Assembly: GCA_046727415.1 (NCBI GenBank)
Contig: JBKPCO010000020.1
Coordinates: 659 to 64,658, forward strand
Length of the DNA stretch: 64,000 bases
Direction: 5' to 3'
Source: Candidatus Methylomirabilota bacterium
GTDB taxonomy: Bacteria > Methylomirabilota > Methylomirabilia > Rokubacteriales > CSP1-6
The position numbers and the translations under genes are program-made. The first letter of the stretch is position 1. Each line of letters begins with the position of its first letter. Shown one piece after another: positions 37,459-64,000 of the stretch. The notes beneath the pieces are model-generated. The model was not told the DNA's origin. It saw only the letters and a program-made list of their open reading frames with translations, and did not search any database.

Positions 37459-38253
37459 TCACGGCAAGACCGAGCCCATGAAGTAATCGCAGACGAGGAT
37501 CAGCACCGAGGAGAGGACGACCGCCTGCGTCGTCGCGCGCGCCACGCCCTCGGCGCCGTGGCCGACGTTGAACCCCTTGTACGTGCAGACCCACGTCACG
37601 ACGATCCCGAACGAGATCGACTTCCAGAAGCCCGTCATGATGTCGGTCATGTCGACGAACGTCCGCATCTCGCCGAAGTACGTGCCTTCCGACAGCCCCA
37701 GGAGGCGCACGCCGACGAGGTAGCCGCCGAAGATTCCGACCACGTCGAAGATGGCCGTCATCAGCGGGAAGGTCACCAGCCCAGCCAGGATCGAGGGCGC
37801 CACCAGGTAACGCATCGGGTTGAGGGCCATGACCGTCAGGGCGTCGATCTGCTCGGTGATGCGCATGATGCCGATCTCGGCGGTGAGCGCCGAGCCGGCG
37901 CGCCCGGTGACCATCAGCGCCGCCAGCACCGGGCCGAGCTCGCGGATCAGCGAGAGCGCAACCGCGGGGCCGAGGAACGCCTCGGAGCCGAAGCGCACGA
38001 GAGTCAGGTAGATCTGGAGCCCGAGGACCATCCCGGTGAAGGTGCCGGTCAGCAGGATGATCAGGAGCGAGCGGTAGCCGATGTAGTCGATGCGGTCGAG
38101 GAACGCCCGGAGCTTGAACGGCGGCGTGACGAGGGCGCCTAGCGCCTCGCCGAAGAAGGTGCCGAACCGGCCGAGTGCATCGACGACTCCGATCGTCCAG
38201 CCCCCGACCAGGTCGAAGGGGCGGAGTGCCGGCGCGACCGGCCGCTCAGGCAT
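37459..38253 (-). CDS. mlaE: MlaE-type ABC transporter permease
   Basis: 264 aa. FTGMVLGLQ...LIRELGPVLAALMVTGRAGSALTAEIG is the MlaE signature. Its start overlaps the shc stop by 8 nt. Confidence 0.9.
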   Translation of the reverse strand: MPERPVAPALRPFDLVGGWTIGVVDALGRFGTFFGEALGALVTPPFKLRAFLDRIDYIGYRSLLIILLTGTFTGMVLGLQIYLTLVRFGSEAFLGPAVALSLIRELGPVLAALMVTGRAGSALTAEIGIMRITEQIDALTVMALNPMRYLVAPSILAGLVTFPLMTAIFDVVGIFGGYLVGVRLLGLSEGTYFGEMRTFVDMTDIMTGFWKSISFGIVVTWVCTYKGFNVGHGAEGVARATTQAVVLSSVLILVCDYFMGSVLP

Positions 38254-40147
38254 GCGCGCGGCGGTAGATTCCCAGGGCCCAGAGAGGGAAGTAGTGGGCG
38301 TAGAGGTGGTACTTCAGGTAGAAGACCCGCGGGAATCCGGTTCCGTTCCAATAGGGGTCGTCCCACGAGCCGTCGTCCCGCTGCGTCCGCAGCAGATACT
38401 CGACGCCGCGCACGACTGCCGGGCCGCTGGTGCGGCCGGCGGCGAAGAGCCCGAGCAACGCCCACGCGGTCTGGCTCGGCATCGACTGGCCCACGCCGGC
38501 GAACTCGGAGTCGTCGTAGCTCTCGCAGGTCTCGCCCCAGCCGCCGTCCTTGTTCTGGTGGCGCTCGAGCCACCGCACTGCGCGCTGGACGTATTCGTGC
38601 CGCAGGTCCTCGCCGATGGCGGCGAGGCCGCGCAGCACCGACCACGTGCCGTAGATGTAGTTCACGCCCCAGCGCCCGTACCACGGCCCGTCGTGCCGCT
38701 GCGCGTGGCGAAGGAAGTCGATCGCGCGCTGAGCGGGCTCGAAATCCTTTTTGTAGCCGAGCGTGCCGAGCAGCTCGAGCCCGCGGCCCGTCAGGTCCTC
38801 GGTGGACGGATCGAGGAGGGCGCCGTGATCGGCGAACGGGATGTGGTTCAGATAGAGGCGATTGTTGTCGGCGTCGAAGGAGGCCCAGCCGCCGTCGCTG
38901 CCCTGCATGCCGAGGAACCAGCCGAGGCCGAGCTCCTTAGCCACCCGGGTGGTGTCGCCGTCGAGCCCGCTCACCTTCTCGAGCGCCATCACGACCATCG
39001 CCGTATCGTCGAGGTCCGGATAGAAGTCATTGCGGTACTGGAAGGCCCAGCCGCCGGGCTTCACGTGTGGCCGCTTCACCTGCCAGTCGCCCGGCACCAG
39101 AACCTGGCACTCGATCATCCACTCGGCGGCGCGGCGCAGCGCCGGATGGTCGGGCGGCACGTCGCTCTCGATCATCGCGTTGACCGCGAGCGCGGTGTCC
39201 CAGACCGGCGAGGGGCAGGGCTGGTAGTGCACGGAGTCGCCGTCCTCGACGGCGAGGGCCTCGATCTCCTTGATCTGCCCCATCACCAGCGGGTGATCGT
39301 CCGGGTACCCGAGCAGCCGCATCGCCAGGATCGAATTCGCCATCGCCGGGTAGATGCCGCCGAGGCCACCGGGAACGGCCAGCCGCTCCTCGAGGAACGC
39401 CCGCGCGGCCTCGACGGCGCGCTTGCGCAGGGGACGCGGGGAGAATCGTTCCCAGATCTTGAGACCGTCGTCGACGGCGATGAAGAAGCTCTTCCAGAAG
39501 AGACCTCGCCAGCTGAAGGGCTCCGGCACGCGCGGAAATCGGAGGCTCGTCTCCTCGCGCGGCTCCGGCCAGAGCTCGTCGAGGGACAGGTGCGGAGGGA
39601 GCCACTTCACCGGCTTGCGGTCCATCAGAACCAGGAGCGGCACCAGCACGGTGCGCGACCAGTACGAGATCTCGTAGATGTTGAACAGGAAGAACGGGCG
39701 CGGCAGCAGCATGATCTCGATCGGCATCGTCGGGACGCCGTTCCAGTCGTACTCGCCGAAGAGCGCGAGCTGGATCTTGGTGAACACGTCCGCCTTGGCC
39801 GGCCCGCCCATCTCGCGGATGCGCTCGCGCGCCGCCAGCATCGCCGAGTCGCTGATCGGGACGCCGGCCATCTTCATGGCGAAGTACGCCTTGATGGTCG
39901 CGGAGAGATTCGCCGGGCCCCCCTCGAAGAGGGAGTACCCGCCGTCGGGAAGCTGCTGCCGCTTGAGGTAACGCACCGAGCGCGTCTCGCGCTCGCGGTT
40001 CACCCGGTCGATCAGATGACAGAGCAGCAGGTACTCGGATGTGATCGTCGTGTTGGCTTCGAGCTGGCCGATCCAGTGGCCATCGGGGGCCTGCTGGCCA
40101 AGCAGATGCGCCTGGGCGCGGCCGATCGCGTCCTGCAGGTGCCTCAC
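38246..40147 (-). CDS. shc: squalene-hopene cyclase
   Basis: 633 aa. Repeated QW motifs (QAPDGHW, QLPDGGY, QNKDGGWGE, QRDDGSW) and the catalytic DxDDTA (YPDLDDTAMVV). GTG start. Confidence 0.95.
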   Translation of the reverse strand: MRHLQDAIGRAQAHLLGQQAPDGHWIGQLEANTTITSEYLLLCHLIDRVNRERETRSVRYLKRQQLPDGGYSLFEGGPANLSATIKAYFAMKMAGVPISDSAMLAARERIREMGGPAKADVFTKIQLALFGEYDWNGVPTMPIEIMLLPRPFFLFNIYEISYWSRTVLVPLLVLMDRKPVKWLPPHLSLDELWPEPREETSLRFPRVPEPFSWRGLFWKSFFIAVDDGLKIWERFSPRPLRKRAVEAARAFLEERLAVPGGLGGIYPAMANSILAMRLLGYPDDHPLVMGQIKEIEALAVEDGDSVHYQPCPSPVWDTALAVNAMIESDVPPDHPALRRAAEWMIECQVLVPGDWQVKRPHVKPGGWAFQYRNDFYPDLDDTAMVVMALEKVSGLDGDTTRVAKELGLGWFLGMQGSDGGWASFDADNNRLYLNHIPFADHGALLDPSTEDLTGRGLELLGTLGYKKDFEPAQRAIDFLRHAQRHDGPWYGRWGVNYIYGTWSVLRGLAAIGEDLRHEYVQRAVRWLERHQNKDGGWGETCESYDDSEFAGVGQSMPSQTAWALLGLFAAGRTSGPAVVRGVEYLLRTQRDDGSWDDPYWNGTGFPRVFYLKYHLYAHYFPLWALGIYRRAHA

Positions 40148-40162
40148 GTGGGTGATGGTAAC

Positions 40163-40996
40163 ATGCTGACTGGATTACTGAAACCTTCCATGGACCTTCT
40201 CGTCGGAACCATGGTGCTTCGACCGTACGTTTTTGCCTTCCTGGCGGTCTTCCTGGTCGCAGGGGCAGTCGATCTGGGCTGGCGGCGCGTCCTCGGGTTC
40301 GCCGGGTGCGTCTGGCCGGTGGCCTGGCTCGCCGAGTTCTCGTCCACGCGCACCGGAATCCCCTTCGGGCTCTATACGTACACGCAGCTCACGCGCGGCC
40401 GCGAGCTGTTCCTGGCCGACGTGCCCGTGATGGACTCGCTGTCCTTCACCTTCCTCGCCTACGCGTCGTTCTGCCTGGCCCGCGTCGCGCTCGCCGGCCG
40501 GGCGCCGTCGCGGCCGGTAACGGCGGTGCTGGCCGGCTCGCTCATGATGGCGCTCGACGTCGTGATCGATCCGCTCGCGGTGCGCGGCGACCGGTGGTTT
40601 CTCGGCCACCTCTTCTTCTACCCGGAGCCCGGCGTCTACTTCGGCGTGCCGTTGTCGAACTTCGCGGGGTGGGTGATCGTCGGCACGATCGGCGTCGGCT
40701 TCTACCTCGCCTTGATTCATCGGCGCGCCTCGGCCGGCGGGGCCCCAGCCCCGCGACGGCCTGGAGCGCGCACCACCGCCTCGAACGCCTCGGGAGGGCG
40801 GGCCTGGCCCGGTGTCGCGTTATACTACGGCGTGCTCGGGTTCAATCTCGCCATGACGATCCTGATCGGCGAGTGGTGGTTGGCGGCGGTGGGGGCGGCA
40901 GTCCACGTCGCCGTGGCCCTCGCAATCGTTCACTTCAACCGGAGTCCGGGCGTGATCGCGCTCGGCCCTGACCGCGAAGGAATTCAACGCGCATGA
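40163..40996 (+). CDS. polytopic membrane protein of the DUF422/CruF-like carotenoid-biosynthesis family
   Basis: 277 aa. SSTRTGIPFGLYTYT and DPLAVRGDRWF are typical of this family. Only the last 277 codons of the 968-aa track ORF are real. Its stop overlaps the hpnH ATG. Confidence 0.6.
   Translation: MLTGLLKPSMDLLVGTMVLRPYVFAFLAVFLVAGAVDLGWRRVLGFAGCVWPVAWLAEFSSTRTGIPFGLYTYTQLTRGRELFLADVPVMDSLSFTFLAYASFCLARVALAGRAPSRPVTAVLAGSLMMALDVVIDPLAVRGDRWFLGHLFFYPEPGVYFGVPLSNFAGWVIVGTIGVGFYLALIHRRASAGGAPAPRRPGARTTASNASGGRAWPGVALYYGVLGFNLAMTILIGEWWLAAVGAAVHVAVALAIVHFNRSPGVIALGPDREGIQRA
40722..40773. repeat. 52-nt repeat, copy A (inside the DUF422 coding region)
   Basis: ggcgcgcctcggccggcggggccccagccccgcgacggctgGagcgcgcac matches 59047-59098 at 51 of 52 positions. 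Contains the internal hairpin cggggc-ccca-gccccg. Confidence 0.85.
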
Positions 40997-49961: not shown

Positions 49962-50021
49962 CGCGTTTGTCATTCGGTGGTAGCATGCGGGCCACCGCAT
50001 CGCGTTCCAGGAGGCCTGCTG

Positions 50022-52106
50022 ATGGCGATCGATATCGGGAAGATCCGGAACGTCGGCATCGTCGGTCACGGCGGCGTGGGCAAGACGTCGCTCGTCGAGG
50101 CCATGCTGTTTGCCGCCGGTGCCGTGACGCGCCTGGGCCGGGTCGACGACGGCTCGACCACCACTGACTTCGACCCCGACGAGATCAAGCGCAAGATCTC
50201 GATCAACACTTCGGTGGCCTACTGCGACTGGAAAGGTCACCGCATCAACTTCGTCGACACCCCCGGCTACGGAGATTTCATCGCCGACGCGCGGGCCGGG
50301 CTCCGGGTCGTCGAGGCGGCCGTCGTGGTGGTCGACGCGGTTGCCGGTGTCCAGGTGCAGACCGAGAAGGTCTGGAAGTTCGCGACGGAATACACGCTGC
50401 CGTGCGTCGTGGTGATCAACCGTCTCGACCGCGAGCGCGCCGACTTCTTCCGCACCGTCGATTCGCTCGGCCGGCGGCTCAAGGGGCGGCTGGTCGCGCT
50501 CCACATCCCGCTCGGTGAAGAGTCGGGCTTCCGGGGCTTCGTCGATCTCGTCAAGATGAAGGCGGTCACGTTCGCGGGCGGCAAGCCGGCCGAGGGCGAT
50601 ATTCCGGGCGAGGCCGGGGACCAGGCCAAGGAATACCGCGAGAAACTCGTGGAGGCGGCCGCCGAGACCGATGACGATCTGCTCGCCAAGTACTTAGAGG
50701 AAGGCACGCTCGGCGAAGCGGAGATGCTGAAGGCCCTCAAGGCCGGCATCGCGCAGGGCAAGCTCGTTCCAGTCATGTGCGCGGCCGCGACCAAGTCGAT
50801 CGGGGTCCACGCGCTGCTCGACCTCATCGTCGATTCGCTTCCGTCGCCGGCCGCCCGCACGGAGGTCGCCGGCACCGATCTCAAGACCAAGCAGGCGGCG
50901 AACCGAACTGCCGACGCGAAGGCCCCGGTGACCGCGCTCGTTTTCAAGACGCTCAGCGACCCGCACATCGGCAAGCTCTCGCTTTTCCGCGTGATGAGCG
51001 GCACGCTCAAGGCGGACTCGACGCTCCTGAACCCAGCGCATGGCGCCCGGGAGCGGATGGGCCACGTCTCGTGGCTCCAGGGCAAGACCCAGAAGAACGT
51101 CGAGGCGCTCGGGCCGGGGGAGATCGGGGTCGCCCAGAAGCTCAAGGAGACGCAGACCGGCGACACGCTGACCGAAGAAGCGCAGCCGTTCGAGCTGCCG
51201 AAGATCACCTTCCCGGAAGCGGCCATCTCGTTCGCGATTCAGCCCAAGACGCGGGGTGACGAGGACAAGATCTCGAACGCGCTGGCGCGCATCGCCGAGG
51301 AGGACCCGACGGTCCACTACCACTTCGATCCCGAGACGAAGCAGCTCCTGGTCTCGGGCGTGGGCAGTATGCACGTCGAGATGGTGGTGGAGCGCATGAA
51401 GCGGAAGTACAACGTCGACGTGAGCCTCCTGCCGCCGCGCATCCCCTACAAGGAGACGGTCAAGGGGCGCGCCGAGGGGCAGGGGAAGTACAAGAAGCAG
51501 ACCGGCGGGCGCGGCCAGTACGGCGACACGTGGCTCCGTGTCGAGCCGATGCCGCGGGGTGGCGGCTTCGAGTTCGTCGACGACATCTTCGGCGGCGCCG
51601 TGCCGCGTAACTTTATCCCCTCGGTCGAGAAGGGCGTCCGCGACTGCATGAAGAAGGGGATCCTCGCCGGCTACCCCGTCGTCGACATGAAGGTCACGCT
51701 CTACGACGGCTCCTATCACGACGTGGACTCGTCCGATATGGCGTTCCAGATCGCCGCGTCAATGGGCCTGCAGAAGGTGTTCATGGACGCCCGGCCGATC
51801 CTGCTCGAGCCCATCATGAACGTCGAGGTGACAACGCCCGCGGACCACGCCGGCGACGTCATCGGCGACCTGAACTCCCGCCGCGGCCGCATCGTGGGCA
51901 TGGAGCCGGCGGGCGAGACGGCAGTGGTGCGCGCGGTGGCGCCGATGGCCGAGATGCTGACCTACGAGTCGAGCCTGCGCTCCATGACTGGCGGCCGCGG
52001 CGGCTACTCGATGGAGTTCTCCCACTACGAAGAGGTCCCCGCGTTCCTGGCCGAAAAGGTCATCAAGGAGGCGAAGACTGAGAAGGAGAGTGCCGAGAAG
52101 CACTAG
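50022..52106 (+). CDS. elongation factor G paralogue (EF-G2 type)
   Basis: Start MAIDIGKIRNVGIVGHGGVGKTSL. G1 is GHGGVGKTS rather than the canonical AHIDAGKTT. DTPGYGDF. Full five-domain length (694 aa). Confidence 0.85.
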   Translation: MAIDIGKIRNVGIVGHGGVGKTSLVEAMLFAAGAVTRLGRVDDGSTTTDFDPDEIKRKISINTSVAYCDWKGHRINFVDTPGYGDFIADARAGLRVVEAAVVVVDAVAGVQVQTEKVWKFATEYTLPCVVVINRLDRERADFFRTVDSLGRRLKGRLVALHIPLGEESGFRGFVDLVKMKAVTFAGGKPAEGDIPGEAGDQAKEYREKLVEAAAETDDDLLAKYLEEGTLGEAEMLKALKAGIAQGKLVPVMCAAATKSIGVHALLDLIVDSLPSPAARTEVAGTDLKTKQAANRTADAKAPVTALVFKTLSDPHIGKLSLFRVMSGTLKADSTLLNPAHGARERMGHVSWLQGKTQKNVEALGPGEIGVAQKLKETQTGDTLTEEAQPFELPKITFPEAAISFAIQPKTRGDEDKISNALARIAEEDPTVHYHFDPETKQLLVSGVGSMHVEMVVERMKRKYNVDVSLLPPRIPYKETVKGRAEGQGKYKKQTGGRGQYGDTWLRVEPMPRGGGFEFVDDIFGGAVPRNFIPSVEKGVRDCMKKGILAGYPVVDMKVTLYDGSYHDVDSSDMAFQIAASMGLQKVFMDARPILLEPIMNVEVTTPADHAGDVIGDLNSRRGRIVGMEPAGETAVVRAVAPMAEMLTYESSLRSMTGGRGGYSMEFSHYEEVPAFLAEKVIKEAKTEKESAEKH

Positions 52107-57467: not shown

Positions 57468-59030
57468 GTGCGCTACGGGTTCGTGATCGATCAGCGCCGC
57501 TGCATTGGCTGTCATGCCTGCACGGTGGCGTGCAAGGAAGAGAACCGGGTTCCGCTGGGCGCCTTTCGCACCTGGGTGAAGTACGTCGAGCGCGGGACCT
57601 TCCCGCAGACGCGCCGATACTTCTCGGTGCTGCGGTGTAACCACTGCGACGACGCGCCCTGCGTGACGATCTGTCCGACGGTGGCGCTCTACCGGCGTCC
57701 CGACGGCATCGTCGACTTCGACGGCGCCCGGTGCATCGGCTGCAAGAGCTGCATGCAGGCGTGTCCGTACGACGCACTCTACATCGACCCGGACACGCGC
57801 ACCGCCGCGAAGTGCAACTACTGTGCGCATCGCATCGAGGTAGGGCTCGAGCCGGCGTGCGTGATCGTGTGCCCGGAGCAGGCGATCATCGCGGGCGATC
57901 TGGATGACCCGAGGTCGACCATCGCCCGCATCGTTGATCGGGAGCCCGTGCAGGTGCGCAAGGCCGAGCAGGGAACCCGGCCCAAGGTGTTCTATCTGGG
58001 CGCCGATGCCTCGGCGCTCTCGCCCGAGCTGCAGGCGCCGGCGAGCCGTTACCTCTGGGCCGAGCGGCCGCGCGAAGAGGTCGATCTGGTGACCATGGTC
58101 GCCGAGGCCCAGCAGCGCACTGCGCCCGGATCTCACACCCTGAGCCGGCCCGTATACGATGTGCCCCACCAGGTGCGGCCGTGGGGCTGGAAGGTCTCCG
58201 CGTACCTGTGGACGAAGTCGATCGCCGCGGGCACCCTGCTGGTCGGAGCACTCGCAGGGTCTGCCGGATGGGGAAGCCTCCTCGGCGTTGCCGCTCCCGC
58301 GCTCAGCCTGATTTTTCTGGCGCTTACGACCGCACTCCTGATCCTCGACCTCAAGCGCGCCGACCGCTTCGCCTACATCCTGCTCAAGCCGAACTGGCGC
58401 TCGTGGCTCGTCCGCGGCGCGTGGATCCTCTTGGCGTTCGGCGTGGTCGGCGTCCTGTGGCTGATCGGCGGGCTGACCGATCGCGTCGACCTCGTCCGCG
58501 CGACGTTCATACCGGCCGCCCTGCTGGCGCTCGCGACCGCGGGCTACAGCGCGCTACTCTTCGGCCAGGCCGAAGGGCGCGACTTCTGGCAGAGCCCGCT
58601 GGTGCTGCCGCACCTGATCGTGGCCGCGCTGGTTGCTGGCAGCGCCACCCTTTCGCTCGCCACCCTCGTCTGGCCCACCGGCGTGATGGTGGCCGGTCTC
58701 TACGTTTCCCATCCGGGCGATACGCTCGGGGCCTTGATGGTGCTCTCGCTCGCCGCCAACGCCGGGCTCCTCGCGGTCGAGCTCGGCACCCGCCACCCCG
58801 TGCGCGACGTGGCGAAGGCGGCCCGGCTCATCACGCGCGGCGGCTACCGGGCTCGCTTCTGGGGCGGCGTGGTGCTCGCGGGGATCGTCTTGCCGATTGC
58901 GTTCGTGATGGCCGACTTCGCGCTCACGCTGTGGCCGCTGAGCCACCTCGCGGCGGTCCTTGCGCTGGCCGGGCTCTGGCTGTGGGAAGACCTGTGGGTG
59001 CGGGCCGGCCAGTCCGTGCCGCTGAGCTGA
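57468..59030 (+). CDS. fusion of a 4x[4Fe-4S] ferredoxin subunit (DmsB/PsrB/SoeB-like) with an NrfD/PsrC/SoeC-like membrane quinone-interacting subunit
   Basis: The N-terminal ~190 aa has CIGCHACTVAC, CNHCDDAPC, CIGCKSCMQACP and CNYCAHR...CVIVCP. The C-terminal ~290 aa is polytopic and starts PWGWKVSAYLWTKSIAAG. No signal peptide. Confidence 0.8.
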   Translation: MRYGFVIDQRRCIGCHACTVACKEENRVPLGAFRTWVKYVERGTFPQTRRYFSVLRCNHCDDAPCVTICPTVALYRRPDGIVDFDGARCIGCKSCMQACPYDALYIDPDTRTAAKCNYCAHRIEVGLEPACVIVCPEQAIIAGDLDDPRSTIARIVDREPVQVRKAEQGTRPKVFYLGADASALSPELQAPASRYLWAERPREEVDLVTMVAEAQQRTAPGSHTLSRPVYDVPHQVRPWGWKVSAYLWTKSIAAGTLLVGALAGSAGWGSLLGVAAPALSLIFLALTTALLILDLKRADRFAYILLKPNWRSWLVRGAWILLAFGVVGVLWLIGGLTDRVDLVRATFIPAALLALATAGYSALLFGQAEGRDFWQSPLVLPHLIVAALVAGSATLSLATLVWPTGVMVAGLYVSHPGDTLGALMVLSLAANAGLLAVELGTRHPVRDVAKAARLITRGGYRARFWGGVVLAGIVLPIAFVMADFALTLWPLSHLAAVLALAGLWLWEDLWVRAGQSVPLS

Positions 59031-59046
59031 ACGTCCATGATCCAGA

Positions 59047-59098
59047 GGCGCGCCTCGGCCGGCGGGGCCCCAGCCCCGCGACGGCCTGCAGCGCGCAC
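59047..59098. repeat. 52-nt repeat, copy B (intergenic, upstream of the Mo-subunit gene)
   Basis: 51/52 identical to 40722-40773. The single difference is C at 59089 versus G at 40764. Confidence 0.85.
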
Positions 59099-59116
59099 AT
59101 CCGCACGGAGAGAGGC

Positions 59117-61948
59117 ATGACCGATCGTCTGACCGAGCCGCTGCACCCGGTCGCCCGTGAATTGCGCCCGCCCGAGGGCGGGCTTCGATCGTATCCGCCC
59201 GTCGAGCGGTGGGACGGCTGGGAAGAATACGACCCGGTCGCCTGGCCGCAGAAGGTCAAGCGCCGCTACTCGCTGATCCCGACGATCTGCTTCAACTGCG
59301 AGGCCGCCTGCGGTCTCCTGGCGTACGTCGACCAGGCAACCCTCAAGATCCAGAAGTTCGAGGGGAATCCGGTTCACCCGGGAAGCCGCGGCCGTAACTG
59401 CGCCAAGGGGCCCGCCACACTGAATCAGGTGACCGATCCGGAGCGGATTCTCTATCCGTTGCGTCGGGTGGGGCAGCGCGGCGGCGGCAAGTGGGAGCGC
59501 ATCTCGTGGGATCAGGCGCTCGACGACATCGCCGGGCGCATCCGCGCGGCGCTCGTCGAAGGCCGGCAGAAGGAGGTCATGTATCACCTCGGGCGGCCGG
59601 GCCACGAGCTCGTCTACCTGCAGCGCGTCTTCCACGCCTGGGGGATCGACGGCCACAACAGCCACACGAACGTCTGCTCGGCGAGCGCGCGCGCGGGCTA
59701 CGCGTTCTGGCACGGGATGGACCGCCCCTCGCCCGACCACGCGAATGCCCGCTTCATCCTGCTCCTGTCCTCGCACCTCGAGACCGGCCACTACTTCAAC
59801 CCGCACGCCCAGCGCATCATGGAGGCGAAGGCGCGCGGCGCGAAGGTTGCGGTGCTCGACACGCGCCTGAGCAACACCGCGTCGATGGCCGATTGGTGGC
59901 TCGCGCCGTGGCCCGGCTCGGAGTCGGCCGTGCTCCTGGCGATCGCCCACGTGCTGGTGCGGGAAAAGCTCTATGACCGCGACTTCGTGCGGCGCTGGGT
60001 GAACTGGGACGAGTACCTGCGCGCGGAGCGGTCCGAGCTGCCGGTCACGTTCGAGGCGTTCGAGCAGGCGCTCGACGAGCTGTACGCGCAATTCACACCG
60101 GAGTTCGCCGAGGCCGAGAGCGGTGTCGCCGCCGCAACCATAGTTGAAATTGCCCGGGAGATCGGGCGGGCCGGCTCCGCGCTGGCGACCCACGTCTGGC
60201 GCAACACCGCCGCCGGCAATCTCGGCGGCTGGCAGGTCGCGCGCGCGCTCGAGCTCGTGGTGGTGCTCATGGGAGCGGTCGGCACGCCCGGCGGCACCGC
60301 GCCGAACGCCTGGAACAAGGCGATCCCGACGCCGCCGATGATGCCGCCACCCGGGAAGATCTGGAGCGAGCTCTTGATGCCGCGCGAGTACCCGCTCGCG
60401 TTCTTCGAGATGAGCTTCCTGCTCCCGCACTTCCTGAAAGAAGGGCGCGGCAAGCTCGCGATGTACTTCACGCGGGTCTACAACCCCGTGTGGACGAACC
60501 CCGACGGGATGTCGTGGATCGAGATGCTGACCGACGAGAAGAAGGTCGAGCGGCACGCCTGCCTGACGCCGATCTGGAGCGAGACCGCGTGGTTCGCCGA
60601 CTACGTCCTGCCGATGGGCCACGCCTCGGAGCGTCACGACCTCATGTCGCAGGAGACGCACGCGGCGCGCTGGATCGGCTTCCGCCAGCCCGTGCTCCGC
60701 GTGGCGCTCGAGAAGGCGGGCCGGCGCTTCGACCTCACCTGGCAGGCGCACGAGGCCGCCGGGATTGGCCAGGTGTGGGAGGAGGACGAGTTCTGGATCG
60801 AGCTTTCGTGGCGGATCGATCCCGACGGCGCGCTCGGCGTGCGGAAATACTTCGAGTCGCCGTACCGCGCGGGCGAAAAGCTCCGCATCGAGGAGTTGTA
60901 CCGCTGGATCTTCGAGAACAGCGTGCCCGGGCTTCCCGAGGCGGCGGCCCGCGAGCGGGTCAGCCCCCTCGAGTACATGCGGAAGTACGGCGCGTTCCTG
61001 GTCGAGGACCAGGTGTACCGCACCCACGAGCAGGCGCTCACCGCCAAGGATCTCGACGGGGCGACGGTCGACCCGGTCTCCCACGTCGTGCAGAAGGGTG
61101 GTCAGGCGATCGGCGTCGAGATCGACGGCCGGCGATATGGCGGGTTCCCGACGCCGTCGCGCAAGCTCGAGTTCTTCTCGGGAACGCTCAAGGCGTGGAA
61201 GTGGCCCGAGCAGGCGGTGCCCAACTACATCCGCAGCCATGTCCACTGGTCGAATCTCGATCGCGCGAATGGCGAAATGGTGCTCCTGCCCACGTTCAGG
61301 CTGCCGACGCTCATTCACACGCGCTCGGGCAACGCCAAGTGGCTCTACGAGATCTCCCACACGAATCCGGTCTGGATGCATCCGACCGACGCAGCGCGCA
61401 CGGGCGTCTCGACCGGCGATCTGCTCAAGGTCGCCACGCGCATCGGGCACTTCGTCGACCGGGTCTGGGTCACCGAGGCGGTCCGGCCGGGCGTGATCGC
61501 GTGCTCGCACCACCTCGGACGGTGGCGTCTGCACGAGGACGCGGGCGGCGAGCGCTGGTCCACGTCGCTCGTCGATCTCACCCAGCCCGAACCGGGGAAA
61601 TGGCGCATGCGGCAGGTTCACGGACCTCGGCCGTTCGCCAGCGATGATCCCGATTCCGGGCGCGTCTGGTGGGAAGACGCGGGCGTCCACCAGAACCTCA
61701 CGTTTCCGGTCCAGCCCGACCCGGTCAGCGGCCAGCACTGCTGGCACCAGAAGGTGACCGTGTCGCGACCAGCTCCCGACGATCGTTACGGCGACGTGGT
61801 TGTGGATACGAACCGCTCGTTCGAGGTCTATCGCGAATGGCTGGCCCTCGCGCGCCCGGCGCCCGGCCCGGGCAACCTGCGGCGTCCCCTGTGGCTGCCG
61901 CGGGCGTTCAAGCCGGACGCGTCCGCCTACCGGCTGGACGGCGCCTGA
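59117..61948 (+). CDS. bis-MGD molybdopterin oxidoreductase catalytic subunit without Tat signal (SoeA-like)
   Basis: 943 aa. Start MTDRLTEPL with a GGAGAGAGG RBS. CFNCEAACGLL...NCAKG is the N-terminal FeS-0 motif. No RRxFL. The track ORF start at 58181 is a shadow over the upstream gene. Confidence 0.85.
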   Translation: MTDRLTEPLHPVARELRPPEGGLRSYPPVERWDGWEEYDPVAWPQKVKRRYSLIPTICFNCEAACGLLAYVDQATLKIQKFEGNPVHPGSRGRNCAKGPATLNQVTDPERILYPLRRVGQRGGGKWERISWDQALDDIAGRIRAALVEGRQKEVMYHLGRPGHELVYLQRVFHAWGIDGHNSHTNVCSASARAGYAFWHGMDRPSPDHANARFILLLSSHLETGHYFNPHAQRIMEAKARGAKVAVLDTRLSNTASMADWWLAPWPGSESAVLLAIAHVLVREKLYDRDFVRRWVNWDEYLRAERSELPVTFEAFEQALDELYAQFTPEFAEAESGVAAATIVEIAREIGRAGSALATHVWRNTAAGNLGGWQVARALELVVVLMGAVGTPGGTAPNAWNKAIPTPPMMPPPGKIWSELLMPREYPLAFFEMSFLLPHFLKEGRGKLAMYFTRVYNPVWTNPDGMSWIEMLTDEKKVERHACLTPIWSETAWFADYVLPMGHASERHDLMSQETHAARWIGFRQPVLRVALEKAGRRFDLTWQAHEAAGIGQVWEEDEFWIELSWRIDPDGALGVRKYFESPYRAGEKLRIEELYRWIFENSVPGLPEAAARERVSPLEYMRKYGAFLVEDQVYRTHEQALTAKDLDGATVDPVSHVVQKGGQAIGVEIDGRRYGGFPTPSRKLEFFSGTLKAWKWPEQAVPNYIRSHVHWSNLDRANGEMVLLPTFRLPTLIHTRSGNAKWLYEISHTNPVWMHPTDAARTGVSTGDLLKVATRIGHFVDRVWVTEAVRPGVIACSHHLGRWRLHEDAGGERWSTSLVDLTQPEPGKWRMRQVHGPRPFASDDPDSGRVWWEDAGVHQNLTFPVQPDPVSGQHCWHQKVTVSRPAPDDRYGDVVVDTNRSFEVYREWLALARPAPGPGNLRRPLWLPRAFKPDASAYRLDGA

Positions 61949-62036: not shown

Positions 62037-62531
62037 ATGACTGACGATTGCCAGGTGACCCGGCGGACGGCACTGGGCGCGCTCGGCGCTCTCGGCGTCG
62101 TCGCCGCCGGAGGGTTCGTGATGGGCACGCCTGCGACCGCGCGCGCCCAGGTGCTCGGGCTGAACGAGAGTGTCCAGGACACGATGAAACGGCTCTTCGG
62201 CGACCGTCCCATCAAGGACGGTGAGGCCCTCGTCAAGGTCGACTTCCCGCCGATCGCCGAGAACGGCTCGGTGGTGCCGATCTCGGTCACCGTGGACTCG
62301 CCGATGACGCCGGCGAGCTACGTGAAGAACATCTACATCGTCGCCGACAAGAATCGCATTCCGTTCGTCACCCGCGTGACGCTGGCGCCGGAGGCGGGCC
62401 GCGCGTTCATGGGCGCGAACATCCGCCTCGGCGAGACGGGCGACCTTCGCGCGATCGTGGAGCAGAGCGACGGCACCCTGCTCGCGGTCAAGCGCGAGGT
62501 CAAGGTGACCGTCGGCGGGTGCGGAGGCTAG
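62037..62531 (+). CDS. soxY: sulfur carrier protein SoxY, Tat-exported
   Basis: TRRTALGALGALGVVAAG is a Tat signal. The C-terminal VTVGGCGG is the invariant GGCGG carrier arm. Confidence 0.9.
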   Translation: MTDDCQVTRRTALGALGALGVVAAGGFVMGTPATARAQVLGLNESVQDTMKRLFGDRPIKDGEALVKVDFPPIAENGSVVPISVTVDSPMTPASYVKNIYIVADKNRIPFVTRVTLAPEAGRAFMGANIRLGETGDLRAIVEQSDGTLLAVKREVKVTVGGCGG

Positions 62532-62533
62532 CG

Positions 62534-62866
62534 ATGGCTGACAGCGACAAGGTCCGTCTCCGCTTGCCGTCGACCATCAAGTCCGGCGACATCGTCCAGG
62601 TGCGTGCGCTCGTGCTCCATCCGATGGAGCGGGTCGAGCGCGACGCGCAGGGCCGAATCATCCAGAAGAACTATAACTACGTCAACAAGGTGATCGTGAC
62701 GTACCTCGGCAAGACCATCCTCACCTTCGACACCTCGCAGGGCGTGGCCGAGAACCCCTTCTTCTCCTTCACGTTCCGGGCAACCGCTCCCGGTCCGCTC
62801 AAGGTCGAGTTCCTCGACACCACGGGCGGTCGATTCGAACGTACGGCCGACATCAAGTTTTCGTGA
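62534..62866 (+). CDS. soxZ: SoxZ
   Basis: 110 aa. IKSGDIVQVRALVLHPME...NPFFSFTFRA is typical of SoxZ. Starts 3 nt after soxY. Confidence 0.9.
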   Translation: MADSDKVRLRLPSTIKSGDIVQVRALVLHPMERVERDAQGRIIQKNYNYVNKVIVTYLGKTILTFDTSQGVAENPFFSFTFRATAPGPLKVEFLDTTGGRFERTADIKFS

Positions 62867-64000
62867 GCCGCCGGCCAGCACGGCGGGCGGCGCGCTGGGC
62901 CGCTCTCGTCGCGCTCTGCGCCGCGTGCGCCGGGCCGACCGCCAATGCGCCCGACACCGCGAGCGTCCCGGCGTGGACGTCGCGCGCCACACCCGAGGCG
63001 CGGGGCGAGTTCCAGGTGCAGCCCGACGGCAAGCGCATGGCGGTCCGGTATCGCGGCTGGTCGACGCGCGATTTCAACTTCCGGACCTACGCCTACGACG
63101 ACAAGCGCCCTGAGCCGGCCGTGCAGACCGTGACGATGCCGGCCGGCGTGACGGGCAACCCGCGGCTGGGCCACGCGCTGTTTCTCAGCCGCGCCAAGGG
63201 GCCGTGCACCGGTTGCCATCTGATTCCGGGCGACGACGTGTGGCCCGCCGGCAACGTCGGTCCAGACCAGTCCACCATCGGTGACCGGAAGCTGACCGAT
63301 CAGTACCTCTATCAGGTCATCTGGGATCCGCGGGTGTTCTTCCCCAACACGTCCATGCCGCCGTGGGGCACGGTCGGCGTCCTGAGCCCCGAAGAGGTCG
63401 TGCACCTCGTGGCCTATCTGCAGACGCTCAAGGGCCCGGTGCCGCCGGAGAAGGATCCCGATCGCAGTCCGTTCACACGGCGCAAGCCGGCGGGATTCGG
63501 TGACAACCTCGATCCGACGAACAACCCCGCGATGCTCCTGGCGGACAGCGCAGAGGCCCTGTGGACCGCCAAGGGGCCGGCCGGCAAGGCGTGCGCTGAT
63601 TGCCACGAGGGCGGAGCGGCGAGCGCCATGAAGGGCGTCGCGACGCGTTATCCGAAGTTCGTCAAGGCGTACCGGCGAGTCATGAGCATCGAGGATTTCC
63701 TGACGGTCCACGGGCCCGAGACCACCGGCCGCCCGCTCCTGGCCGAGTCCAACGACAACCTCAATCTGAGCATGCTCATCCGGCGCGCCTCGAACGGGAT
63801 GCCGATGAGCGTCGACACCGAGAGCCCCGAGGCGCGCGCGGCGATCGCGCGCGGCAAGGCCACGTTTGGCAGGCGCGTGGGCGAGCGCAATCACGCGTGT
63901 GCCGACTGCCACACGGTGGAGCGCGGCGCCAACAAGTTCCTGGGCGGGCGGCTGCTGGCGGACGTCACCACGGGCCTGACCCGGCACTTTCCCCTCTGGC
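62863..64000 (+). CDS. soxA: SoxX-SoxA fusion cytochrome c (partial, continues beyond window)
   Basis: Not in the ORF track because there is no stop in the window. GTG overlaps the soxZ TGA. My translation has lipoprotein-like LVALCAACAG, a SoxX part GPCTGCHLIPG...GNVGPDQS...PNTSMPPWG...VAYLQTLKG, then a SoxA part with ACADCHEGG and ACADCHT...TRHFPLW. Confidence 0.8.
   Translation, partial: MSRRPARRAARWAALVALCAACAGPTANAPDTASVPAWTSRATPEARGEFQVQPDGKRMAVRYRGWSTRDFNFRTYAYDDKRPEPAVQTVTMPAGVTGNPRLGHALFLSRAKGPCTGCHLIPGDDVWPAGNVGPDQSTIGDRKLTDQYLYQVIWDPRVFFPNTSMPPWGTVGVLSPEEVVHLVAYLQTLKGPVPPEKDPDRSPFTRRKPAGFGDNLDPTNNPAMLLADSAEALWTAKGPAGKACADCHEGGAASAMKGVATRYPKFVKAYRRVMSIEDFLTVHGPETTGRPLLAESNDNLNLSMLIRRASNGMPMSVDTESPEARAAIARGKATFGRRVGERNHACADCHTVERGANKFLGGRLLADVTTGLTRHFPLW

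Follow-up and report, generated by a model that had tools for sequence, protein, structure and literature searches.

A fused ferredoxin-NrfD protein and its molybdenum subunit in a Rokubacteria sulfur gene cluster: a candidate cytoplasm-facing sulfite:quinone oxidoreductase of the PSRLC3 lineage, separate from SoeABC

A sulfur gene cluster at the end of a 64,000-nucleotide stretch of contig JBKPCO010000020.1 (assembly GCA_046727415.1, Candidatus Methylomirabilota; the whole stretch is called the window below) contains two adjacent genes for a molybdenum enzyme with a membrane anchor. The first encodes a ferredoxin fused to an NrfD-type membrane domain (BC), and the second encodes the catalytic subunit (A), of the type that carries a molybdenum-bis(pyranopterin guanine dinucleotide) (Mo-bisPGD) cofactor. 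This BC-A pair is very probably polysulfide-reductase-like complex 3 (PSRLC3) of green sulfur bacteria, found here in another phylum. With moderate confidence, we propose that it works as a cytoplasm-facing sulfite:quinone oxidoreductase of the PSRLC3 lineage, separate from SoeABC. We infer its substrate, the direction of electron flow and its energy coupling.

Both products have the domains and Cys motifs that the initial annotation had read in them, describing a 520-residue ferredoxin-NrfD protein and a 943-residue Mo-bisPGD subunit. Residues 1 to 200 of BC (nt 57468 to 58067) constitute a ferredoxin with four [4Fe-4S] clusters, as indicated by the Pfam domain Fer4_11 at residues 52 to 144 (E = 1e-23) and by 16 Cys residues in four cluster motifs (C12/15/18/22, C57/60/65/69, C89/92/95/99 and C116/119/131/135). 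A linker (residues 200 to 239) leads to an NrfD/PsrC-type domain, predicted to bind quinone, at residues 240 to 516 (nt 58185 to 59015; Pfam NrfD at residues 238 to 482, E = 1.4e-12), in which AlphaFold2 models eight confident transmembrane helices. The top match of the ferredoxin half among solved structures is PsrB (2vpw_B, E = 3e-51). This half is 49 to 57% identical to the B subunits of relatives exported by the twin-arginine translocation (Tat) system, which are described below, 50% identical to PhsB and 38% identical to SoeB. BLAST searches with the membrane half retrieved NrfD-type C subunits and no SoeC or DmsC match at E ≤ 10.

The ATG start codon of A is preceded by GGAGAGAGG. The protein contains the FS0 cysteines (C58-x2-C61-x3-C65...C95) and a putative Mo ligand, C187 (nt 59675 to 59677), at the alignment position that holds the Mo-ligand Cys in PhsA and SoeA and Ser in DmsA. 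Its scores with curated NCBIfam models are far below their cutoffs, at 208 bits for PhsA (cutoff 694), 100 for TtrA (cutoff 1750) and 122 for ArrA (cutoff 1600); the TtrB model gave 212 bits (cutoff 416). PsrABC (2vpw) is the second-best match of A among solved structures (E = 2.5e-37), and ArrAB (6cz7) is also among the matches. One homologue, from Myxococcota_A (P0245, locus L176 5604-8480, 44% identity; L and P numbers are our locus and protein labels), aligned without the Mo-ligand Cys that is conserved in all other members, which may reflect either a faulty alignment or a different ligand.

The absence of Tat and Sec signals from both proteins, a central point of the initial annotation, was upheld by a scan of their N termini. 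No twin-arginine motif is present in the first 60 residues of BC or of A, and as a positive control the scan detected Tat motifs in two other products of the same cluster, FccB (TRREFL, residue 5) and SoxY (TRRTAL). An alternative start does not change this picture: the BC open reading frame (ORF) cannot be extended upstream, and the in-frame GTG codons 5′ of the A start fall within the BC gene and encode no Tat-like peptide. Homologues of A and BC from many phyla likewise lack Tat signals. In the loops of the membrane domain, Lys and Arg account for 11 of 52 residues on the ferredoxin side and for 1 of 28 on the opposite side, a positive-inside pattern as expected for a cytoplasmic ferredoxin. 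The lack of signals and this charge bias support the prediction that the catalytic side of the complex faces the cytoplasm. As both termini of PsrC are on the PsrB side (PMC8076601), a B-to-C fusion is topologically simple. Together with a cytoplasmic ferredoxin, the fusion implies that the NrfD anchor would be inverted relative to PsrC. A periplasmic enzyme of the Psr/Phs/Ttr/Arr type was ruled out on the basis of the missing Tat motif and the low curated scores. We also detected no Nitrate_red_del (TorD-like) gene among the genes called within 10 kb on either side of A.

The fusion of B and C is genuine. We surveyed loci with A at 50% identity or more and enough upstream DNA, and one continuous fused BC ORF was directly 5′ of A in 174 of the 201 loci, which include finished genomes; a sequencing frameshift as the source of the fusion was thereby ruled out. 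Among the 80 closest genome loci, all but a few have the fused BC gene at this position, and divergent members with A identities of 44 to 47% are fused as well. NCBI annotates BC as a single coding sequence in Thermomicrobium roseum DSM 5159, Rhodococcus jostii RHA1 (plasmid pRHL3) and Natrinema halophilum, and the ferredoxin-NrfD architecture was seen in thousands of metagenome proteins. The BC-A genes bear the locus tags TRD_RS12035 and TRD_RS12030 in T. roseum and RHA1_RS43840 and RHA1_RS43835 in RHA1. The corresponding A identities are 66% for T. roseum, 60% for RHA1 and 54 to 56% for haloarchaea. Fused pairs devoid of signals occur in Binatia, Acidobacteriota, Chloroflexota, Actinomycetota, Bacteroidota, Chlorobi, haloarchaea, Caldarchaeum and marine group II archaea. 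Among the matches listed, BC-A relatives are present in hundreds of bacterial and archaeal genomes, and those with at least 54% identity belong to Rokubacteria, the first seven of these groups and Thermoproteota.

Four loci labeled Nitrosotalea (L011), Dormibacterota (L015), Verrucomicrobiia (L026) and Limnocylindria (L073) encode BC-A at 75 to 83% identity to the window, and L011 and L073 additionally carry sulfur neighbors of the Rokubacteria type. This points to binning contamination or recent transfer.

Trees were built by neighbor joining from 745 to 800 alignment columns with 100 bootstraps, and their deep nodes are weakly supported. Window A falls in a clade with 100% bootstrap support that unites BC-A pairs of Chlorobium and other Chlorobiaceae, Bacteroidota, Chloroflexota, Actinomycetota and haloarchaea with Tat-type B-C-A relatives; the branching order within this clade is poorly supported. 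Two successive scans, the first of them with a motif, found the Chlorobium pairs. A BC protein 44 to 45% identical over its full length to that of the window is encoded before an A protein of 60 to 61% identity in Chlorobium sp. N1, Chlorobium sp. L442-64 and Chlorobiaceae metagenome-assembled genomes (MAGs), and neither protein has a Tat motif at its N terminus. The gene order in Chlorobium sp. N1 is BC, A, TauE, a DsrE-family gene and a rhodanese gene. A scan seeded with Chlorobium A returned Chlorobium sp. N1 and MAGs, with no classical type strains among the matches listed.

These features match what is on record for PSRLC3. Frigaard and Bryant reportedly described it in 2008 as a PsrA-like protein plus a fused PsrBC-like protein, both devoid of signal peptides. 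Later papers present PSRLC3 of green sulfur bacteria as “2 genes” (PMC5473276), “inferred to be sulfite oxidase” (PMC9324843) or an “alternative sulfite-oxidizing system” (PMC6338057); the passages of these three papers that cite the earlier work credit the name to Frigaard and Bryant (2008) and a discussion of the complex to Gregersen et al. (2011). The window pair likewise consists of two genes, lacks signal peptides and is orthologous to Chlorobium genes of the same fully supported clade. The published PSRLC3 genes are those of C. luteolum, C. phaeovibrioides and Prosthecochloris, and the pairs of Chlorobium sp. and the Chlorobiaceae MAGs stood in for them in this comparison. The initial annotation had noted that the fusion and the gene order differ from those of soeABC; this is correct, as BC-A replaces A-B-C, but the arrangement is not new, since it matches the two-gene PSRLC3. 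What the window adds is a new phylum and a new context for a known kind of enzyme.

Family membership in SoeABC, which the initial annotation had proposed, was not supported. NCBIfam contains no Soe model. Our SoeA reference, in place of the characterized sequences of A. vinosum (D3RNN8), Aquifex (aq_1234) and Ruegeria, was the soe locus of Azospirillum argentinense, obtained by tblastn searches of plasmids, together with relatives named SoeA. The Azospirillum locus encodes A (998 residues), B (251 residues) and a DmsC/YnfH-type C (314 residues), followed by a hypothetical gene and by xsc, whose product releases sulfite. Relatives of its SoeA at 70 to 72% identity carry the JGI name “sulfite dehydrogenase (quinone) subunit SoeA,” and a genome scan seeded with it gave alphaproteobacterial-type relatives among the best 600 matches listed. 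Plasmid matches in Thioclava, Allorhizobium and Phaeobacter that we had suspected to be SoeA proved to be other, soluble Mo enzymes. Window A is 25.8% identical to Azospirillum SoeA over residues 56 to 393 (E = 6e-23), a poorer match than that to PhsA (E = 1e-34), and the name SoeA is absent among the 120 closest database relatives of window A. In the trees, SoeA-type sequences form a separate clade with 100% bootstrap support, weakly sister to PhsA and the most distant from window A (Kimura distances of 1.9 to 2.3 versus 1.8 for DmsA). The anchors differ too: Azospirillum SoeC belongs to Pfam DmsC (PF04976), and the membrane domain of BC belongs to NrfD (PF03916). The nearest sequences outside the fused group are instead the Tat-exported B-C-A enzymes, so that the clustering with reductase-type enzymes that the initial annotation had named as an argument against itself was found in part.

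Those Tat-type relatives have genes for a separate B subunit and an NrfD-type C subunit, followed by genes for an A subunit with a Tat signal, a TorD-like chaperone and a polyferredoxin; with such a signal on A, they would face the periplasm. They were found in Sulfurovum, Sulfurimonas, Sulfuricurvum, Sulfurihydrogenibium and metagenome contigs (P0249, P0274, P0283; L084 7001-10130; L250; L200; L177; L178), and their A and NrfD-type C subunits are 36 to 47% and approximately 34% identical to the window sequences, respectively. In Sulfurovum mangrovi, the A gene carries no annotation and its match falls into two parts. An in-frame stop near L084 8011 may encode selenocysteine or mark a pseudogene. 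A more distant B-C-A-TorD cluster on a plasmid of Azoarcus sp. KH32C (L083 4092-9532), with A 32.5% identical to window A, directly adjoins genes for a PhnD-like binding protein, a sensor kinase and a sigma54 regulator, and an ACR3 arsenite pump gene lies near. This suggests an arsenic-related substrate for the Azoarcus enzyme.

The neighbors of BC-A in the window are those that the initial annotation had named, namely a TauE gene, soxYZ and an upstream persulfide dioxygenase (PDO) gene, all of which were identified by Pfam searches and gene calls (Table 1).

Table 1. Genes of the sulfur cluster in the window.
Feature	Coordinates	Strand	Evidence and remarks
PDO-like MBL-fold (metallo-beta-lactamase) domain plus two rhodanese domains, 467 aa	52140..53543	+	Pfam Lactamase_B and 2x Rhodanese
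YeeE/YedE-type sulfur-compound transporter, 388 aa	53551..54717	+	Pfam Sulf_transp, E = 2e-50
FccB-like sulfide dehydrogenase flavoprotein, Tat signal, 415 aa	54750..55997	+	Pfam FCSD_central, Pyr_redox_2, FCSD-flav_bind
Diheme cytochrome c, 194 aa	56029..56613	+	Pfam Cytochrom_C, Cytochrome_CBB3
TauE/SafE-family anion exporter, 260 aa	56669..57451	+	Pfam TauE, E = 7e-37
BC fusion, ferredoxin-NrfD, 520 aa, GTG start	57468..59030	+	Pfam Fer4_11, NrfD
Catalytic Mo-bisPGD subunit A, 943 aa, ATG start	59117..61948	+	Pfam Molybdop_Fe4S4, Molybdopterin, Molydop_binding
SoxY, 164 aa, Tat signal, C-terminal GGCGG	62037..62531	+	Pfam SoxY
SoxZ	62519..62866	+	Pfam SoxZ; gene caller start 62534 (110 aa)
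SoxA-like cytochrome gene, 5′ part, leaves the window	62863..64000	+	Gene calls and Pfam on the source contig

From 52.1 kb to the end of the window, all genes are on the plus strand with short gaps, in the order PDO-rhodanese, YeeE, FccAB (flavoprotein, then cytochrome), TauE, BC, A and SoxYZ(AB); only 16 nt separate the end of the TauE gene from the start of BC. The PDO-rhodanese protein, a weak match to the NCBIfam model of the bifunctional sulfurtransferase/dioxygenase Blh, presumably supplies the cytoplasm with sulfite or thiosulfate. The YeeE protein matched the TsuA and YedE models of NCBIfam below their cutoffs, and the diheme cytochrome c is likely the FccA-like partner of the flavoprotein. 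SoxY exceeds the cutoff of the NCBIfam model SoxY_true_GGCGG (127.8 versus 125 bits). On the full contig the SoxA-like cytochrome has 435 residues and is followed by genes for SoxB-like and thioredoxin-like proteins (L170, L171 and L172, where the encoded A protein is identical to window A); this Sox set (window 62037-64000, L170 12921-17397) also contains an 80-residue ORF. Gene calls and Pfam searches on the source contig detected no SoxCD within 10 kb of A. The Sox set at the end of the window appears truncated, and any sulfane sulfur that stays bound to SoxY would have to reach sulfite in some other way.

The window has a G+C content of approximately 68%, and its nearest genomic relatives are Rokubacteria/Methylomirabilota MAGs, the best of which (L001) shows 97% protein identity. 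Between approximately 20.6 and 50 kb, the ORFs with Pfam matches are of the housekeeping type (IspH, a PALP enzyme, alcohol dehydrogenases, an epimerase and a carotenoid-synthesis domain), and three ORFs of this region have no Pfam match. The Caroten_synth domain is confined to residues 714 to 878 of the 968-residue ORF at 38090-40996, the true start of which is probably downstream because no gene on record has exactly that product. An EF-G-like GTPase gene (49977-52106; 694 residues according to the gene caller, 709 for the longest ORF) lies directly 5′ of the sulfur cluster. A promoter and terminator scan gave nothing useful.

Sulfur genes recur next to BC-A in other lineages. We scored 148 family loci for sulfur-related genes within 6 kb and found one in 51 of them, most often PDO (29 loci) or TauE (24 loci). 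Such neighbors are present in at least seven phyla and down to an A identity of 44%; PDO genes in particular lie near BC-A in Rokubacteria, Myxococcota_A, Acidobacteriota, Chloroflexota, Gemmatimonadota, Bacteroidota and Actinomycetota. In Myxococcota_A (A identity of 44%), genes for a sigma54 activator, PDO-rhodanese and Sulf_transp precede BC-A. The order in R. jostii RHA1 is DsrE-TusA-BC-A-Mrp, amid three MBL-fold genes and ArsR regulators, and DsrE and TusA matches were also scored at a Chlorobiaceae MAG locus (L231). A gene for a CsoR-family “metal-sensitive transcriptional regulator” is located immediately 5′ of BC-A on the same strand in T. roseum (L081 7087-7365), as the only sulfur-related neighbor detected at that locus. 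CsoR-, ArsR-type and sigma54-activator families include persulfide sensors, and the T. roseum protein is a candidate for such a CstR-like regulator. The conserved neighbors in Binatia and Acidobacteria matched Pfam TctA, CoA transferase, Mrp antiporter and ABC ATPase domains, which offer no clear functional clue, and four other neighboring ORFs there have no Pfam match. An Mrp/NBP35-family ATPase gene directly 3′ of A, with a slight overlap, was seen in RHA1 (L082 11799-12968) and Natrinema (L085 10900-12060), and a Natronomonas MAG (L277) has a match no more than 6 kb away from A; the window has no such gene. The ATPase may serve specifically in Fe-S maturation of the cytoplasmic enzyme. No arsenic or selenium genes were seen beside fused BC-A pairs.

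The recurrent sulfur neighbors support a role in cytoplasmic sulfite oxidation. PDO enzymes make cytoplasmic sulfite, and TauE belongs to a sulfite/sulfonate-type exporter family; with both as company, the simplest reading of BC-A is a sulfite:quinone oxidoreductase that works like SoeABC. The initial annotation had assigned it such a role, which we grade as plausible given that PDO, TauE, DsrE/TusA and YeeE neighbors recur across phyla. In the proposed mechanism, sulfane sulfur supplied by FccAB, by the SoxCD-less Sox system or by YeeE would be converted to sulfite by the PDO-rhodanese protein. The substrate, most likely sulfite, would then be oxidized to sulfate at the Cys-ligated Mo-bisPGD site of A, and its electrons would travel via FS0 and then the four [4Fe-4S] clusters in the ferredoxin half of BC to a quinone site in the NrfD half, where quinone would be reduced. 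The NrfD half would be inserted with its termini and ferredoxin-binding face in the cytoplasm, opposite to PsrC, and TauE may export the anionic product or surplus sulfite. With both half-reactions on the cytoplasmic side, this step would probably be electrogenic only if protons moved through the NrfD domain.

Several points weigh against a PSRLC3-lineage sulfite:quinone oxidoreductase. The searchable literature holds no biochemical or genetic datum for any member of the BC-A family, and the sulfite assignment rests on gene context and on the old hypothesis for green sulfur bacteria. Approximately two-thirds of the family loci, including many from Binatia, Terriglobales and Bacteroidota and that of the Flavobacteriaceae isolate Lutibacter aestuarii, have no recognizable sulfur gene within 6 kb, and the DsrE/TusA and YeeE neighbors of others fit sulfane sulfur or thiosulfate as well as sulfite. 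The top-scoring curated models, PhsA (208 bits) and TtrB (212 bits), represent reductases, although both scores are far below cutoff. In addition, both anchors of the classification are indirect, the canonical SoeA being represented by Azospirillum and PSRLC3 by Chlorobium sp.; neighbor-joining trees weakly supported at deep nodes underlie it, and AlphaFold2 gives pLDDT values (its per-residue confidence score) below 50 over the ferredoxin half of BC, so that this half of the model is unreliable.

The ambiguity of the DsrE/TusA and YeeE genes gives rise to the strongest alternative, which we nevertheless regard as unlikely: a cytoplasm-facing, quinone-feeding enzyme that acts on sulfane sulfur or thiosulfate, for instance on TusA- or DsrE-bound persulfide or thiosulfonate or on imported thiosulfate, and thus operates upstream of sulfite or in parallel with PDO. 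DsrE and TusA genes are directly 5′ of BC-A in RHA1, DsrE-like and rhodanese genes are 3′ of it in Chlorobium, a thiosulfate-type YeeE gene and a rhodanese-fused PDO gene adjoin it in Rokubacteria and Myxococcota_A, and the best curated match of A is a thiosulfate reductase, PhsA. Nevertheless, the commonest neighbors, TauE and PDO, both point to sulfite, many carriers have no DsrE or TusA gene nearby, and no Mo-bisPGD enzyme is known to oxidize protein-bound persulfide. The more specific version, in which BC-A is not a sulfite dehydrogenase but a quinone-reducing oxidizer of carrier-bound sulfane sulfur or thiosulfonate (TusA/DsrE-S-S- or -S-SO3-), appears improbable to us. If true, it would add a molybdenum-based path to reverse Dsr and sHdr as a third way of turning sulfane sulfur into sulfite or sulfate; soil bacteria, Bacteroidota and haloarchaea would commonly have it, and marker-gene surveys in their present form would miss it.

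It is a little more improbable still that the enzyme runs in the opposite direction, with quinol electrons reducing cytoplasmic polysulfide, tetrathionate, thiosulfate or elemental sulfur, in the manner reported for the bacterial sulfur reductase of Aquifex, which faces the cytoplasm. All close curated and structural matches (PhsA, TtrB, PsrABC 2vpw and ArrAB 6cz7) are indeed reductases, and a cytoplasmic bacterial sulfur reductase, bSreA, was placed in one lineage with SoeA (Wells et al. 2023, PMC10100899). However, the recurring partners of BC-A are oxidative, as PDO requires O2 and FccAB and Sox are oxidative systems, and no energy would be conserved if quinol drove a reduction on the inner side of the membrane. 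The cultured carriers, R. jostii RHA1, T. roseum and the haloarchaea among them, are known as aerobic heterotrophs.

We attach yet lower probability to a non-sulfur substrate, such as arsenite, selenium oxyanions or an organic compound, with sulfur genes that are nearby by coincidence in some lineages. The many loci devoid of sulfur neighbors, the TctA, CoA transferase and Mrp antiporter genes of Binatia and the distant Tat-type relative beside arsenic genes in Azoarcus KH32C would fit this idea, as would the proposal that a different Soe-like enzyme oxidizes arsenite (PMC6620896). The recurrence of sulfur neighbors in at least seven phyla, with no arsenic or selenium genes seen beside fused BC-A, argues in favor of a sulfur substrate.

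Very improbable is a genuine SoeABC member with merely fused and reordered B and C genes: despite the shared cytoplasmic orientation, the similar size of A (943 residues versus 956 to 998 in SoeA-type proteins), its FS0 and Cys ligand, the sulfur-oxidation context beside soxYZ and the abstract of Dahl et al. (2013), which calls Soe genes universal in purple and green sulfur bacteria (as quoted in PMC8232776) and so suggests that PSRLC3 was counted as Soe, the separate and most distant SoeA clade, the match to SoeA over one-third of the protein only and weaker than that to PhsA, the missing SoeA name among the closest relatives, the NrfD anchor and the lower identity of the ferredoxin half to SoeB than to Tat-type B subunits all contradict it.

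Genome and metagenome surveys usually take soeABC or aprAB/sat as the markers of sulfite oxidation in the cytoplasm. Members of the BC-A family are annotated as “molybdopterin-dependent oxidoreductase,” “formate dehydrogenase” or “anaerobic selenocysteine-containing dehydrogenase,” and with such generic names they go uncounted in soeA-based surveys. As a sulfite:quinone oxidoreductase, if that is its role, BC-A may be a major and so far unrecognized connection through which the detoxification of persulfide or sulfide feeds the respiratory chain in aerobic soils. Furthermore, a 2021 review of NrfD-type complexes presents SoeABC as the sole one that faces the cytoplasm (PMC8076601). BC-A would be a second inverted complex of this type, of an origin separate from that of SoeABC, and would be useful for testing ideas on proton pathways in such anchors. 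The PSRLC3 hypothesis of 2008 is directly testable, since several carriers (R. jostii RHA1, T. roseum, Natrinema and Lutibacter) can be cultured and manipulated genetically.

Among known systems, PsrABC of Thermus thermophilus (PDB 2VPW to 2VPZ) resembles the window enzyme in its eight-helix anchor and is the best structural match of the ferredoxin half. In contrast to BC-A, it is periplasmic, Tat dependent and composed of three polypeptides, and PsrA is approximately 180 residues shorter than window A. Alternative complex III (ACIII) combines a cofactor-less MopB-like ActB fused to a ferredoxin with 10-helix ActC/ActF and multiheme ActA/ActE. It was ruled out, as A keeps FS0 and the Mo-ligand Cys, the ferredoxin is fused to the membrane domain and the latter has eight helices; the ActB chains of ACIII matched only at E = 1e-12 to 1e-18, versus 3e-51 for PsrB, and the genes called on the source contig include no ActA, ActE or ActF gene.

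The Tat-type relatives share with the window enzyme the B-C-A order, which in their case resembles that of the ttrBCA and srdBCA operons, and window A and Tat-type A have in common a YPP-x-E-x-W motif on the N-terminal side of FS0. The inward-facing fused form may have arisen within or beside a periplasmic family of ttrBCA order, by loss of the Tat signal and the chaperone followed by fusion of B and C. As for the PSRLC3 pairs of Chlorobium, a TauE gene adjoins BC-A there as in the window, but it is 3′ of A in Chlorobium and 5′ of BC in the window, where the pair sits between fccAB and soxYZ. The hosts differ as well, since that of the window is a nonphototrophic soil member of the Rokubacteria, and so does the proposed source of sulfite, PDO in the window versus reverse Dsr in green sulfur bacteria.

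SoeABC is said to have been described for Allochromatium vinosum by Dahl et al. in 2013 and for Aquifex aeolicus by Boughanemi et al. in 2020. It consists of three genes in the order A-B-C with a DmsC-family anchor, unlike the window enzyme, with its fused BC gene 5′ of A and its NrfD anchor. Calisto and Pereira (PMC8076601) found SoeC in Proteobacteria, Clostridia and Aquificae only, whereas the BC-A family extends to many other phyla and to Archaea. Both enzymes are, as far as sequence features can tell, cytoplasm-facing Mo-bisPGD proteins with FS0, a four-cluster ferredoxin and a heme-free, quinone-binding anchor. The use of SoeABC after cytoplasmic sulfite production, to which soxYZ is relevant, serves as the working model for the window enzyme, which would be analogous to Soe in its role and of separate origin.

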